This document shows positions 12,383 to 64,000 of a stretch of DNA of 64,000 bases, piece after piece. Origin of the DNA: Podarcis cretensis. Lineage: Eukaryota. Under the pieces are notes generated by a model. It saw only the letters and a list, made by a program, of their open reading frames with translations. It ran no database searches and was not told where the DNA came from. Both the position numbers and the translations under genes were made by a program. The stretch is from positions 54,126,001 through 54,190,000 of the forward strand of contig OX638157.1 in assembly GCA_951804945.1 (NCBI GenBank), in the 5' to 3' direction. Position 1 is the first letter of the stretch, and every line of letters starts with the position of its first letter.

Positions 12383-12656
12383 TTAACCTGGGATGCATAG
12401 CACTGGTCAAATCTCTTATTGTTGCAATGTTGGCAGGAATACTGGTCGTACCTGTCTCCTCTTCCCCTCCCCAAGCTACTGGGGAGCTTGCTGGGACAAC
12501 ATTTGAACACTGTAGATTTCCTTATTGGCAGACTGTCCCAATTTGAAATGGGTGGCTCCATCTAAGCAAGCCTGTCCTGTGGGAAGTGGGGAGGTTCAGA
12601 ACACCTTTCTATTTTCTTGATTATTATTTTTTAAAGGAGCTGGTGTTTATTTATGG

Positions 12657-13968
12657 TGATCCCTTAGACCTATCCAATTACCGCCCAGTTTCAAATCTTC
12701 CATATCTGGGTAAGGTAATTGAGAGAGCGGTTGCTAAACAGCTTGGTAGGTTTCTGGAGGAAACATCGGCTTTAGATCCATTTCAGTCCGGTTTCCGTCC
12801 TGGTTTTGGGACCGAGACGGCTCTGGTTGCCCTAACAGATGATCTCCGTAGACAACTGGTCGACATGGTCGATCATGATCTTCTCAACCACCGCCTCGCA
12901 GACGTGGGGATACAGGGCATAGCCCATAACTGGCTGTGCTCTTTTATCTCTGGTCGGGGACAGAGGGTGGCACTAGGGAGGGAAATGTCGTCACGCCATT
13001 CCTTGGTGTGTGGAGTGCCGCAGGGCGCAATTCTCTCCCCGATGCTTTTTAACATCTTTATGCGCCCCCTTGCCCAGATTATCTGGAGATTTGGGCTGGG
13101 CTGTCACCAATATGCTGATGACACTCAGCTCTATCTGCTGATAGATGGCCACACTGACTCGGCCCCGAACACACTGACCAGATGCTTGGAAGCTGTGGCT
13201 GGATGGTTTTGTGGGAGCCGATTGAAACTAAATCCTTCGAAGACAGAGGTCCTATGGCTGGGTCCGGATGGCATGGGGATGAGGGACCAACTCCCTTCTC
13301 TTGCGGGGGCCCATTTATTGCCATTGCCTTCCATTAAGAGTTTGGGTGTAATCCTTGACGCCTCCCTTTCCATGGAGGCGCAAGTTACAGCAACAGCCAA
13401 GGTGACATTTTTCCACCTTCGCCGCATCAAGCAGTTGGTCCCTTACCTTTCCCGCCCCGACCTGGCCACAGTGATCCATGTGACGGTCATCTCCAGGCTT
13501 GACTACTGTAATTTGCTCTACGCGGGGCTGCCCTTGAAGCTGACCCAGAAACTCCAGAGGGTGCAGAATGCTGCAGCGAGGCTCCTCACGGGGTCTCTGC
13601 CATGGGAGCATATTCACCCAGTGCTTTTCAAACTGCACTGGCTCCCGATAGAGTACAGGGCCTGATTTAAGGTGCTGCTTTTGACCTTTAAAGCCCTTCA
13701 TGGCCTAGGACCCTCATACCTACGGGACCGCCTCTCCTGGTATGCCCCACGGAGAGCCTCAAGGTCCATAAATAACAACACCCTAGTGGTCTCAGGCCCT
13801 AAGGAAGTTAGATTGGCTTCAACCAGAGCCAGGGCCTTTTCAACTCTGGCTCCGGCCTGGTGGTACGCTCTGCCTCATGAGACCAGGGCCCTGCAGGATC
13901 TGATTTCTTTCCGCAGGGCCTGTAAGACAGAGTTGTTCCACCTGGCCTTTGGCTTGGAGCCAATTTGA
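12657..13968 (+). pseudogene. L2 ORF2 reverse transcriptase pseudogene
   Basis: ORFs 12586-13665 and 13672-13968 are in the same frame, split by a TGA. The LDLSAAF segment is missing between RRQL and DMVDH. Confidence 0.9.
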
Positions 13969-43500: not shown

Positions 43501-43853
43501 ATAGTGGAAGGCCAGAGCCTTCCAACTTTGTACTTCACTGAGAGAAAACAAATAACTTAATTCTGAAAGTCAAACTAGCAAGACCACTTGACATCAATAC
43601 TCATTGGATTTAAAACATGGCCCTCCTTTTTTATTGCATATCCATGACAATATCTGCTTGTTATGCTATGGCCACACATGAGCCTGCTCTTAATAGTGGT
43701 TGTGTCTGCAAAAGTTTTGGGGCAGTCACACTGCTTCATTTCTAACCACTGCATATCCCATAATTTCCTGCTGAAATCCCATAACTTTGTATACCACAAA
43801 TGTTCTGGTTGATTTTATCCTGCTTTTGTTGTTCTCTTACCCCTCTGGACAGC

Positions 43854-44106
43854 AGAAGAAGAAGAAGAAGAGTTTGGATTTGATATCCCGCCTTTCACTC
43901 CCCTTCAGGAGTCTCAAAGCGGCTAACATTCTCCTTTCCCTTCCTCCCCCACAACAAACACTCTGTGAGGTAAGTGGGGCTGAGAGACTTCAAAGAAGTG
44001 TGACTGGCCCAAGGTCACCCAGCAGCTGCATGTGGAGGAGCGGAGACTCGAACCCGGTTCCCCAGATTACAAGACTACCGCTCTTAACCACTACACCACA
44101 CTGGCT
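43854..44106 (-). mobile_element. tRNA-derived SINE (Squam3-like)
   Basis: Antisense reads AGCCAGTGTGGTGTAGTGGTTAAGAGC (A box), GGGTTCGAGTC (B box) and a (TTC)n tail; matches 54607-54871. Confidence 0.9.
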
Positions 44107-44345
44107 AATGTGGTAGCATCAGAAACGCCGGAAAAAATCCACTACGGATGCATTATGGTGTTAAGAACATTCTACAGAATACATAGACAATAAAACACCA
44201 GTCCAGAGGAGCCGTTACTTGCTCAATCCATATTTTATTTTTAGGTGTGGGAAGAAGATCCATTGATGGGCACTCAATGCAGAGCACAAATTGGGAAGTG
44301 AAGAGTTGTGGTTCATATTGTTGTAAGATTTGGGGTTTGGGACTG

Positions 44346-45159
44346 GAAAGCGTGTTCTCCTTCATGGAGAGCACGTGTTGCGGTGGGGTCTGCTGAGCCA
44401 CCCCTCTGTTACCAGGCAGGGTCTCTAAAGATGGCCTGGGGCAGTGATTGGTTCACTGGGTTGCTGGGGTAAAAGTTATGTTGCAATTTTGGTGGGAGGG
44501 GTAAAATGTTTAAATACTCTGCACGCAGCCTGGAGCTTTCTCTTTGCTGCGTGCAACGGATCACCCGCCCACCCGCCCTTGAGTAAGGGGTTGTTGCATT
44601 GACCTTGCTATGCCTGTCATGGGGTCGTCTGCCGTTCGGGCAGGGGCCTGGTAGGAATTTTGTCCATCTGGCTGATTGGCTGGGCCATTTGGTTTTTGCC
44701 TACTGCGTAGCAAATCGTCACAACTTGTAAGGTTGCGGTTAGGCATTGGTTATAAATTGGTGGAGGAGGGGTTAGGATAGGCTGGGCCTGCCCCTCCATG
44801 GTTGCTGTGGAAAGGGAATTCCGTTAAAGGAATCCTGGGGCTTGCCATCTTTTTGTCCAATCCCTGGAATGGGACTAGGGCCGGCAAGCCTTCGGGGAGC
44901 ATGCGGATGAGAATTGAGGGTCTGTGACTCAGCTCCATTTCTCCCCGACTTGTTTTCCCGCACTGTCTTTCGGTGGTGCCCGGAAGTCAGTTCTGTCCCC
45001 AGGCAGGGGGACAGATAGTCTTAACCAATGCCTAAACAACAACTCACGGTTTTGTATTTAAATAAAGTTGTAGCCAAAATTATGCCAAAAACCTTAAACA
45101 AAAATTAAGTGTGCGTTGTGAGTTATTTGGGGGGGTGGCTTGGGGACCTCGACACGCAA
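44346..45159 (+). mobile_element. Non-coding LTR-like element, probably a DIRS/Ngaro-type solo repeat, with a structured-RNA core
   Basis: GAAAG plus hairpin at the start; ATTGG, GC box and TTTAAATA; TCACCCGCCCACCC; AATAAAGTTGTAGCC; ends CCTCGACACGCAA; no TSD. Motif order is shared with 58070-58843. Confidence 0.75.
44446..44516 (+). promoter_or_regulatory. Putative Pol II promoter of the element (reverse CCAAT, GC box, TATA-like)
   Basis: GATTGG at 44446, GGTGGGAGGGG at 44491, TTTAAATA at 44509. The same order occurs on the minus strand at about 55002-54907 in the divergent copy. Confidence 0.5.
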
Positions 45160-57756: not shown

Positions 57757-58069
57757 ATGCTAGTTGGGAGGGGATAGAGGAGACGGGGGAAGCTGGTTTA
57801 GTGTTAAAGCCATTGGTCTCAGTGTTGAAAGGGAGTGTAGATTAGATTACCTAATTAGATTAATCTCTCCTAGATGCTGCACAGGTTTAGAGGCAGCCTT
57901 AAAATATGTTAGCTGAGAAGACAAAGTGGAGTTAGGCTACATTCATACCATACAATGCAAGCACATGGCTTTGCCCAAAGAATCATGGGAACTGTAGTTT
58001 ACCCCTGACAAAACTACAATTCCTAGAAATCTTAAACCATAGTTCTTGGCATTCTCTGGTAGAGCTATG

Positions 58070-58843
58070 TTGTGGTTCGAGGACCCGAACCCCACGCAGT
58101 GGAATGAAACACAAGGACACGTGATATAAGGTTAATGGGCAAGAAAAGGCCACAACTTTATTGATTACACAAGTGAAAAGGTATTGGCTTAGGCATTGGA
58201 TTACATCAGCTGACTCCACCCACTCGGAGAGGGGTGAGTCTAAAAAACAAAGTGGGTTTATTCACCAGTAGGTGGAGCCTGTTGATGCTAATCCAACTAT
58301 AAGCTCTCCCCTGATGTCACCGAGGGTCGTCCCATGGCCTCCCGCCAAGCAGGCATCGGACGGAATACATGACCGCTGGATTCCTTTAACGGAATACCCA
58401 AAAATTGAAGGCGCAGGCGATGGCCACACCTAGCCCTTCGACACACCACAACACATTATTCCAATGCCTAACCTACCCACCAATACCACAAAAGTTGTGA
58501 CGATTGCTACAAGGTAGGCGAAAAAACCAAAAAAGCCTAATGCCAAATGGAAAAATTCCTACCAGGCCCCCCGGACAACCAGGACGACCAACCTAAGGTC
58601 CATAGCAAGGCCAAAAGAAAACTGGAAACCCTGCTCTAAGGGAGTGGAGGGTGGGTGACTCGCGATGGGACAACGAAAAGTGAGGGCTGGAGGCTGGCGC
58701 TGCAGCAATTTAGGCTGCTGTACACGTCCCCTTGAAGGCGCCAGCCAGGTGAGTGGGAGGCAGGGGGCAAACGCCCCCTGCTTGAGGCGGAGTCCGGCTC
58801 CCAGCCACAACCACTCCCCTCTCTTGCAGGAGGAGAGTCTTTC
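58070..58843 (-). mobile_element. Non-coding LTR-like element, probably a DIRS/Ngaro-type solo repeat, with a structured-RNA core
   Basis: Minus strand reads GAAAG plus hairpin, TCACCCACCC, CCTTGCTATG, GGCCTGGTAGGAATTTTTCCA, GTAGCAATCGTCACAACTT, GGTTAGGCATTGG, TTCCGTTAAAGGAATCC, CCAATGCCTAA, AATAAAGTTGTGGCC, CCTCGAACCACAA. Inserted without a TSD into a MITE (57935-58869). Confidence 0.75.
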
Positions 58844-59802
58844 TATAAATGTGTGGTGTGGAAGTAGCCCTCGCGCACATGCGTTTGTTGCTTTTCTCTG
58901 GGAAAATTGAATGCTGCAAAAGGTTTTCTTAAAAAATAAATAAATTAGGTGCAAGTTCCAGATCTTTATTCGGTGGTACAAATGAGGCCATTTAGTTTCA
59001 TGCAGCACTGCCCGATCTTCTAGTGTTCCTGGGCAGATCTACACAGTGCTGTCCTCTATCTCCACACGTAAACTGGACTGTGCAAGCTCTTATTACCTGA
59101 ATATATTTACAGTCATCGTTCCGTGATGTTTCAATCCCCATCTGCTACAGTTGAAAAGAGAACAAAGTGTGGGTTAATTTCCTACAGCTGGATGCCTGCA
59201 CCTTTCCCTCAGCTAATTAGCATTGGCCCAAGGGACAGAGAAAAAAGGTGTCTCCAAGGCAAAAATCTAAACTCCCTTCTGACATGCCAGATGCACAGGA
59301 AAACGATGCAGTCTAGGAATCCAGAGCACATGAGAAAATATAGTTGTGTTTATTCCTATACTAACCTAGTTGCAAGGACAATAATATAAATCATTGCAAC
59401 CTTCTTCTAACCCAGTTATTGGCTCAGTCTTATTCTGGAGTGTTAGACCTTTAGGCTGCATCGACACCTACATTCAAGTCATGTTTTTCCCCAAAGAATC
59501 CTTGGAAGTATAATTCACCCTTCACAGGGCTACCATTCCCAGCATCCTTAACAAACTACAGTTTCCAGGATTCATGTGGGTGCTTTAAATATATGGTGCC
59601 TGACCCAAAAAGGCACAAAGGTCATGTGGCCGCAGTCCTCCCTAGTGTGGAGAGACGTATTGTATTTCTCTTCAAATTATAGTAATTATGTCTAAGTTTG
59701 CATCCACCTATAAATTAGTACATGGACAAATCTGTGTCCTCTATTGTCTTCTTCTTTTTGGTTGATGCCTTTCCGCTTTCCTTTTTTCCTCCGGCAATGC
59801 AT

Positions 59803-63189: not shown

Positions 63190-63698
63190 TGTCAGTGACT
63201 GGGCAGAGGAGGAATGGTGGAGACCACCTCCCTATCCTGACCCTTCCAGGGAGGAAGAAGAGGAAGACAGTATAGATTTACAACAGGGGTTTGAGGGAGG
63301 TCACAGCTCAGAGGCAGATGAGGGGGGAAACTGGGAAATAATGGGAGAGGAGGAAGAAGAAGAAGCACCACCAGGGGAATGGCAGCTGATGGACTCAGTG
63401 TCTTTAGAGAGCATTACAGAACCTCTTCCAGAACCCGGCAAGCCTTGAAAGTAGTAGAGCAAAGGACTCAGAAGCAAAAGGCCCTTAGCACCACCTGCAG
63501 GGGAGGTGACAAATGAGGAAGTGCAATTAAAAGGGGATGGAAAGTCACCATTATTCCAAGAGGCTGCAGTCCAAGCCTCTCTCTGTAAATATTGAATAAA
63601 AAGCAGAGGGTAAGGACTTTTCCTTGTCTTACAGGCAAAAGCTGCATTTTCAGGTAGGCCCCAAAATCAGCCCTTGGTGCCCTGACCCATGGGTCACA
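63190..63698 (+). mobile_element. Probable solo LTR (Gypsy-like); right end uncertain (63633 or 63698)
   Basis: Starts TGTCAG like 3885 and 9577; purine-rich coding-like 5' half; AATAAA at 63595; no TSD found. Confidence 0.6.
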
Positions 63699-64000
63699 GT
63701 TTTCGTCTGATTCATTTGAAAACTGTGTGAAACACCTGCAAAAAAAAAAAATGTTGTGTAGCTTTCAGCTAGACTGAATTCATTACCATGCAATGTGAAA
63801 TAAAGTGCAAGTCTCTTTAGTGACCATTTAAATGCATATGTTTATTGGGGCTTATTTTGCTATGTGTACTTTAAAACAAATGGAAAGTTATTTTCATCTC
63901 AAAAAGCAGGTTGATTGAAACTCATTTCAGCTAGAAGTTCCATGTGCAAGAACCAAGGAGCAGGACAATGCTAATATTCAGCCCTCTGTGTTCCCCCAAA

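Follow-up and report, generated by a model that had tools for sequence, protein, structure and literature searches.

A predicted single-domain ENE-like hairpin in a structured, high-copy repeat, probably the terminal repeat of a reptile retroelement

Two diverged copies of a high-copy repeat and their ends

The window analyzed here, a stretch of 64,000 nucleotides (64 kb) of genomic DNA, contains two copies of a non-coding repeat element in opposite orientations (Table 1). A previous sequence-only reading had proposed that one is an inverted second copy of the other, and our comparison confirmed that the two are diverged copies of one repeat, with BLASTN matches joining 58570-58492 of copy 2 to 44643-44726 of copy 1 and 58399-58378 to 44814-44835. 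A profile built from both copies found no third copy in the 64-kb window, and a pattern scan for further copies gave none in metagenome contigs, viral contigs and prokaryote genomes, as expected for a vertebrate repeat. None of the 18 open reading frames near the copies had a Pfam domain match, and hence no retroelement domain was found there. Elsewhere in the window, a 372-amino-acid open frame at 12547-13665 (+) contains a LINE-like reverse transcriptase domain (PF00078, E 1.6e-24) that is unrelated to the ENE-like repeat, and interspersed repeats of about 350 nt, presumably Sauria-type SINEs, are abundant, the assignment of the host to the reptiles being based on these. An ARAGORN tmRNA-like call at 43570-44125 (-) lies over a SINE-like repeat and is almost certainly spurious in a vertebrate. 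Just past the 3' flank of copy 2, at 57946-58037, there is a fragment of another very high-copy repeat with short inverted arms. Lastly, short stretches with acceptor- and donor-like flanks at 59093-59141 (-) and about 63690-63735 (-) mark possible exons of a minus-strand host gene, in which case copy 2 would sit in sense orientation within an intron.

Table 1. Coordinates of the repeat element, its motifs and its flanking words in the window
Feature	Position	Strand	Description
Repeat element, copy 2	58069..58842	-	774 nt, non-coding, terminal-repeat-like; based on depth, contig ends and Pfam
Repeat element, copy 1	44347..45159	+	813 nt, diverged subfamily, motif order as in copy 2
Copy 1 motifs	44650-44704; 44739-44752/45022-45035; 45061	+	U-rich hairpin; clamp; AATAAA
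ATAG flank word	58843..58846 (5' flank), again 58065-58068 (3' flank)	-	putative target duplication or recombinase core
5' hairpin	58813..58838	-	9 bp, purine-rich 3' arm, upstream of inner TG(G)TTG; pair probability 0.99
5' terminal arm	58787..58811	-	complementary to 3' end of copy 2
P0 (4 bp) and P1 (8 bp), 5' strands	58601..58613	-	close the three-way junction; common 10-mer
Junction side hairpin	58565..58589	-	upper stem differs in both strands between copies
ENE-like hairpin	58513..58563	-	6-bp basal stem, AA, U5/U6 internal loop, 2-nt CG bulge, 3-bp CCA/UGG stem
Upper U3/U4 loop and 3-bp apical stem	58530..58547	-	not kept in copy 1
P1 and P0, 3' strands	58498..58511	-	P0 overlaps 5' arm of poly(A)-signal stem
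Outer stem, 5' arm	58491..58501	-	pairs with 58149-58159
Clamp, 5' arms (8-bp and 12-bp helices)	58460..58487	-	
18-nt block, identical in both copies	58378..58395; 44818-44835	-; +	5-bp hairpin, GUUAAA loop, pair probability 0.76-0.88
Clamp, 3' arms	58180..58200	-	CCAAT in each
Poly(A) site, likely	58127..58162	-	AATAAA 58162-58157, CA ending 21 nt past hexamer, common AACCTTA
3' terminal arm	58069..58095	-	

The depth of the family was estimated from four public runs mapped onto 57900-59250. In two large runs, the depth over copy 2 ranged from 1e4 to 9e5 compared to 44-87 in the single-copy flank. Relative to the flank, the depth was about 3,700-5,600-fold at the hairpin of copy 2 and 6,900-12,500-fold at its poly(A) region, ratios that mark a highly repeated family and are not to be equated with its copy number. 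The poly(A) region was the deepest bin in three of the four runs. Family contigs were also present (20 and 22 of 30 bins) in two runs that derive from other organisms and are presumed to be RNA; such contigs are uninformative on strand, ends and transcription.

Contig ends bound copy 2 near 58842 on one side and near 58068-58070 on the other, since two X16 contigs have a stop or start at 58842 and one X15 contig stops at 58070. Both copies start at AAAG (58842 and 44347), about 29 nt before an inner TGTTG, and the 3' end of copy 2 is CAACA. In the best two of the DNA-like runs, the depth of this 29-nt 5' extension was 0.78 and 1.31 times that of the bin beside it, which exceeds the expectation for the mere purine tract of full-length proviruses. 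Copy 1 has a 5' hairpin in the same place as copy 2 (44350-44376; pair probability 0.99), formed by another sequence. At its flanks, copy 1 shows CTGG on the 5' side and ATAG on the 3' side and no clean target duplication. TAG follows both copies, and TAG and TGG precede copies 2 and 1, respectively; a fixed TAG is not evident from the contig ends. Copy 1 may start earlier, at a second TGTTG with a G-rich stretch (44319-44346, +) located 28 nt upstream of AAAG, and this alternative start at 44319 is preceded by ATAT, a three-of-four match to the 3' ATAG.

Towards the 3' end, the spacing from AATAAA to CA is equal in both copies, and a G+T-rich stretch follows (0.69 and 0.74). Such an order of AATAAA, a downstream CA and then a G+T-rich stretch is the usual geometry of a poly(A) site. 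A second AATAAA at 58262 (-), present only in copy 2, sits in a hairpin loop; this 13-bp hairpin is missing from other members of the family. The two ends of each copy are furthermore complementary to one another, a feature that was absent from the sequence-only reading; the stretch of about 30 nt that follows the 5' hairpin pairs with the terminal 30 nt or so. The duplex between the ends of the same copy reached -48.4 kcal/mol for copy 1 and -38.0 kcal/mol for copy 2 (0 and 1 of 500 shuffles were as low), as compared with -26.7 and -30.6 for cross-copy pairs and -33.1 and -26.6 for the opposite strand. The end pairing is thus copy-specific, and because the own-copy duplexes lie far below the cross-copy ones, the arms appear to have changed together within each subfamily.

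Typical LTRs are non-coding and have inverted ends of the TG..CA type, a purine-rich tract and a poly(A) signal. Since the termini of the present element do not seem to be TG..CA, both a solo LTR and a solo AB repeat of an Ngaro-type tyrosine-recombinase element come into play. The solo LTR reading covers the inner TGTTG..CAACA and the purine tract, not the 29-nt 5' extension, while the Ngaro-type reading accounts for a start other than TG, for the short word found at either flank and for the end-to-end pairing. We regard the chances of the solo LTR as evenly balanced and the Ngaro-type solo repeat as a tentative possibility, both being matters of judgement. Either way, copy 2 is likely to be an orphan terminal repeat of a reptile retroelement. 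Three other classes were considered. A Hammerhead/Penelope reading was set aside as there was no Rfam hammerhead match, and a DIRS reading as there was no convincing internal region complementary to both termini. Helentrons are built with sub-terminal inverted repeats and an end hairpin; a Helentron read on the plus strand was ranked low because the poly(A) geometry is conserved and the G-U bias (see below) points to the sense strand.

Motifs kept between the copies and their predicted folds

The two copies have eight collinear words of at least 10 nt in common (null mean 0.04, maximum 1 in 500). It had been suggested that the spacers cannot be aligned by eye and that conservation is focused on the paired motifs. 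As for the spacers, a weak alignment does exist, since 504 of 698 aligned columns (72%) are identical compared to 66 +/- 2% for 20 shuffles, the full-length alignment consisting of these two copies only. The suggested focus is borne out in part: identity amounts to 111/127 in the arms versus 393/647 elsewhere, a contrast that is partly circular because the arms were picked after the alignment was seen. On the other hand, the spacer at 58268-58359 is deeper in the family reads than the hairpin, and conservation is therefore not confined to paired motifs. This spacer is not common to copy 1. It carries TGACATCA at 58319 (-), and copy 1 carries TGACTCA at 44925; we take these words to resemble CRE/AP-1 sites.

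The common blocks are mostly identical rather than covarying. Among the 19 common words of at least 7 nt, mutual complementarity was found for 11 at 7 bp (28 of 1000 shuffles), and it was not above the null when the threshold was 6 or 8 bp. Within the element, family differences, as judged from the 40 of 159 rows that were listed, fell into the declared helices in 2 of 25 cases (the helices occupy 198 of 774 positions; binomial 0.028), and in these rows both helix-located differences are Watson-Crick pairs in the family where copy 2 has G-U. In ten helices picked from the sense folds, G-U outnumbered A-C by 16 to 3, which favours the strand carrying AATAAA, while a strand-neutral scan for repeats gave 12 G-U versus 8 A-C, a bias that does not surpass that of the null. 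Structure extends over the whole element (z -3.4 and -6.3, 20 shuffles each), and in a scan of 454 windows of 120 nt that covered copy 1 the windows in this copy were not unusually stable. We conclude that the RNA structure is real, conserved and probably selected in this high-copy retroelement repeat.

The letters previously quoted for the minus strand of 58513-58563 are identical to those in the window, and the lower U-rich loop that had been described there is predicted to form a hairpin in both copies. In folds with a modelled A30 tail, the basal stem had a probability of 0.85-0.97 and the U-tracts were unpaired with a probability of 0.88-1.0 in seven of the eight contexts; one copy 2 context melts the ENE-like hairpin, leaving the basal stem at 0.13. 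Each copy folded alone gives the same three-way junction, in which the helices P0 and P1, absent from the earlier account, are closed around a side hairpin and the U-rich hairpin. The stability of the junction compared with 200 shuffles corresponds to z-scores of -2.17 and -2.51 for the two copies. For the hairpin alone, the z-score is -2.54 in copy 2 (4 of 200 shuffles were equally stable) and an unremarkable -1.65 in copy 1. In longer folds, the probability of P1 in copy 2 was 0-0.12.

Two A's between the basal G-C pairs and the 5' U-tract are kept in both copies. The bulge at the base of the loop is a 2-nt CG at 58520-58519 in copy 2 and a single nucleotide (G) in copy 1, and G-C pairs adjoin the U-tracts on the upper side (CC/GG), the AA and the CG bulge lying between them on the basal side. 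The longest word common to the copies, of 19 nt, has its end within the 5' U-tract, and a 10-nt word spans the 3' U-tract; the U-tracts are kept although unpaired U-runs contribute no folding energy. An ENE descriptor, which was composed after the motif was seen, matched 58513-58563 as the sole site in the 64 kb when at least four U's were required (mean of 0.025 in 40 shuffled windows), and matched none of 2000 shuffles of the element when at least five were required. Copy 1 fails this descriptor because a G breaks its 5' U-run. RNAalifold applied to the two copies did not recover the U-rich hairpin because the U-runs were misaligned. A search of Rfam gave no match at the gathering score, only matches at chance level (E 1.6-9), and no tRNA-like structure was called at either end of the element.

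Long-range pairing was also re-examined. The two proposed clamp helices (58189-58200 with 58460-58471, 12 bp; 58180-58187 with 58480-58487, 8 bp) indeed consist of perfect Watson-Crick pairs, whereas the view that the clamp is extended in copy 2 had to be abandoned, because the main clamp is longer in copy 1 (14 bp versus 12 bp here). In neither copy is any perfect inverted repeat longer than the one formed by this same arm pair, which measures 14 bp in copy 1 and 12 bp in copy 2; in sets of 300 shuffles, these lengths were attained once and six times, respectively. The predicted probability of the 11-nt clamp core was 0.91-0.92 in copy 1 and 0, 0, 0.53 and 0.03 in four contexts of copy 2. As the clamp is the top inverted repeat in both copies and its probability in copy 2 is low, the comparison supports it more than the energy does. 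Beside the common core, both arms differ between the copies yet still pair. Family variants with another spacer rejoin the homology at 58200-58202, which is the edge of the clamp arm.

The outer stem formed by 58149-58159 and 58491-58501, which had been said to overlap the poly(A) signal, does pair (10 Watson-Crick pairs and one G-U), covering just the last three A's of AATAAA. Its duplex energy is -14.4 in copy 2 (0 of 500 shuffles) and just -8.6 in copy 1 (5 of 500). In full folds, the stem over AAUAAA had a probability of 0-0.05 in all four contexts of copy 1 and exceeded 0.05 in only one of four contexts of copy 2 (0.84). P0 and the outer stem share a strand and therefore compete. Contigs that skip 58170-58490, inside the outer stem, were seen twice in one run and once in another, and may reflect a template jump across the base of the stem or an alignment artefact; because the sides of the joint are short (24 and 19 nt), it was not used as evidence.

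A possible role in binding the poly(A) tail and its alternatives

The explanation that we prefer, and whose chances we consider to be about equal either way, is that the U-rich hairpin would act as a single-domain ENE that binds the poly(A) tail, which would slow the deadenylation of the element RNA. Its starting point is the observation that the copies agree in their motifs, in how these are ordered and in which of them are complementary. In the folded RNA, the predicted three-way junction of P1, the side hairpin and the ENE hairpin would present both U-tracts unpaired, and the transcript would be cleaved at the CA located 21 nt past AAUAAA and then polyadenylated. From the hairpin it is 11-12 nt to the first clamp arm and, depending on the copy, 401 or 411 nt downstream to AATAAA. 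The clamp of 12-14 bp may loop out about 260 nt, so that the linear gap of 400 nt between hairpin and tail would shrink, and the tail could then, on the model of KSHV PAN and Evade, make four to five U-A-U triples in the loop. Such a structure would have served the parent element, and its continued use by the solo copy 2 is not implied. The AA insert on the basal side counts against an ENE since it separates the G-C pairs from the 5' U-tract in both copies.

This insert, being non-canonical for an ENE, is equally an argument for the foremost alternative, which we judge rather unlikely, namely that the fold was selected for something other than tail binding. It could be a signal for protein binding, export, packaging or reverse transcription, or the outer stem could tune the use of the poly(A) signal. 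That the whole element is structured would fit, as would the retention of parts that an ENE could dispense with (the invariant 18-nt hairpin and the end-to-end pairing) and the switch-like sharing of a strand by P0 and the outer stem. However, opposed U-runs between G-C-rich helices, upstream of an AAUAAA on the same strand, are the pattern of an ENE and rare by chance, and the weakness of the AAUAAA stem in copy 1 counts against occlusion of the signal as a conserved role.

According to a further alternative, the common blocks are DNA promoter elements, with CCAAT boxes facing either way, AATAAAG serving as a TATA-like element and an initiator about 25 nt downstream, and the complementarity would follow as a side effect from the inversion of factor sites. 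In retroviruses with a very short R, AAUAAA lies in U3 near the promoter, which we counted in favour of this idea. In both copies CCAAT precedes AATAAA, by 36 nt in one and 37 nt in the other, and the upstream arms contain ATTGG; moreover, the arms are identical over 11 nt instead of covarying, and the inner clamp pairs about equally well on either strand. The U-rich hairpin, P1 and the copy-specific extensions of the clamp are nonetheless left unexplained, and as an account of the whole pattern we find promoter function improbable, although it can coexist with the RNA model.

The sequence-only reading had gone beyond a single ENE and proposed a double ENE, in which the upper U3/U4 loop would bind a second stretch of the tail. 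This loop is present in the predicted structure of copy 2, where U3 faces U4 above the 3-bp CCA/UGG stem, and among the 40 of 159 rows listed no substitution falls into it. Its helices, however, are stems of only 3 bp on both sides with a G-U closure at the apex, one U of the upper run is missing in 9%, 8%, 21% and 42% of the depth in the four runs, and copy 1 has a 2x2 UC/UU loop in its place. According to PMC7583470, it is the upper domain of the dENEs described that is canonical and has the higher activity, the opposite of what is seen here, where the upper domain does not resemble the canonical PAN stem-loop. We therefore rejected the double ENE as a feature of the family, and a double ENE seems quite improbable altogether.

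The least tenable explanation is that the common words are mere remnants of ancestry and the stems chance products in a G+U-rich repeat: only two copies are available, several of the statistics were designed after the motif was seen and other 800-nt windows contain equally many inverted repeats, but eight common words of at least 10 nt amid near-random spacers, a top inverted repeat that is identical in its arms between the two copies and own-copy terminal duplexes far below the cross-copy ones make this highly improbable.

Returning to the single-domain ENE, it may be combined with the assignment to a reptile Ngaro-type family in a more far-reaching proposal, which we consider unlikely as a whole. 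The 3' module of the RNA would tether itself, the clamps bringing the tail to a non-canonical ENE in a three-way junction, and the ends would pair at the B-A junction as a substrate for recombination or priming. If true, triplex protection of poly(A) would exist in a mobile element of amniotes that does not belong to the LTR class, at thousands of sites per genome.

Comparison with known systems

ENEs in retroelements are known already. Reviews count more than 200 ENE-like elements, including those in transposons of plants, fungi and slime mold and in stickleback retroviruses, and PMC7583470 places ENEs inside LTRs and in stickleback retroviruses. As far as these reviews go, mobile-element ENEs have been described mostly from plants and fungi, the stickleback retroviruses being the only vertebrate elements named in the reviews. 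No ENE in a reptile element was found in the titles and abstracts of the literature on ENEs, Ngaro elements and squamate repeats, a coverage outside which most subscription papers lie; the supplementary lists of the primary ENE survey (Tycowski, Shu and Steitz 2016) may bear on the novelty. A high-copy reptile family with diverged subfamilies would offer thousands of natural variants for covariation analysis, and would test how far an ENE tolerates a basal AA insert and the long-range delivery of a distant tail. Within host transcripts, solo copies could supply a poly(A) site that brings its own stabiliser. Should the parent be a tyrosine-recombinase element, the paired ends would bear on priming and integration, which are poorly known.

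The closest structural parallel is the ENE of KSHV PAN, which, according to PMC7583470 and PMC13541005, is likewise a stem-loop whose internal loop is U-rich, with about five U's on each side, and which has short flanking helices and a 2-nt basal bulge and is positioned upstream of the poly(A) tail. The upper G-C pairs beside the loop and the 2-nt bulge at its base, listed as ENE features in PMC12501189 and PMC13541005, match copy 2. In contrast to PAN, two A's separate the basal stem from the 5' U-tract, and the hairpin is part of a three-way junction, AAUAAA being some 400 nt away and the long-range arms lying in between. Also, the host is a retroelement instead of a herpesvirus RNA, and the element is known from its sequence and predicted folds. 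The mutagenesis of the Arabidopsis element Evade (PMC12501189) indicates that G-C pairs directly beside the U-tracts are essential.

Evade (PMC12501189) and the rice element TWIFB1 represent the ENEs and dENEs of transposable elements, and the accessible descriptions of these systems resemble ours in that an ENE-like motif lies in or near a terminal repeat of a mobile element. The host is different, being probably a squamate, and because the second loop is not conserved the repeat is not a dENE. A long-range clamp and end-to-end pairing were not found in those parts of the descriptions. Like the repeat, the MALAT1 and NEAT1_2 triple helices belong to a vertebrate genome and have an internal loop rich in U close to a 3' end. 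They differ from it in that the repeat has neither a tRNA-like call nor an Rfam match, carries AAUAAA instead, and is dispersed at high copy number.

As an element, the repeat resembles a solo LTR in its length of about 800 nt, its non-coding nature, the placement of its poly(A) signal some 95 nt before the 3' end and its inner TGTTG..CAACA inverted ends after a purine-rich tract. It deviates from a solo LTR in that both copies begin about 29 nt before TG, at AAAG, with an extension about as deep as the adjacent sequence, in that copy 1 has no clean target duplication, and in the terminal complementarity of 27-30 nt, which includes G-U pairs. With a solo AB repeat of the Ngaro type, judging from PMC8547959 and, for SIRE of VIPER, PMC6681497, it has in common that it is an isolated terminal repeat apparently without TG..CA ends, and the short word on both flanks recalls insertion by a DIRS recombinase (PMC7192593). 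The inner TGTTG..CAACA and the purine tract, on the other hand, resemble an LTR of the integrase type, and no full-length element with split repeats was seen. In a parent with the order A1-ORFs-B1-A2-B2, the end-to-end pairing of the element would correspond to a local hairpin, because B1 abuts A2.
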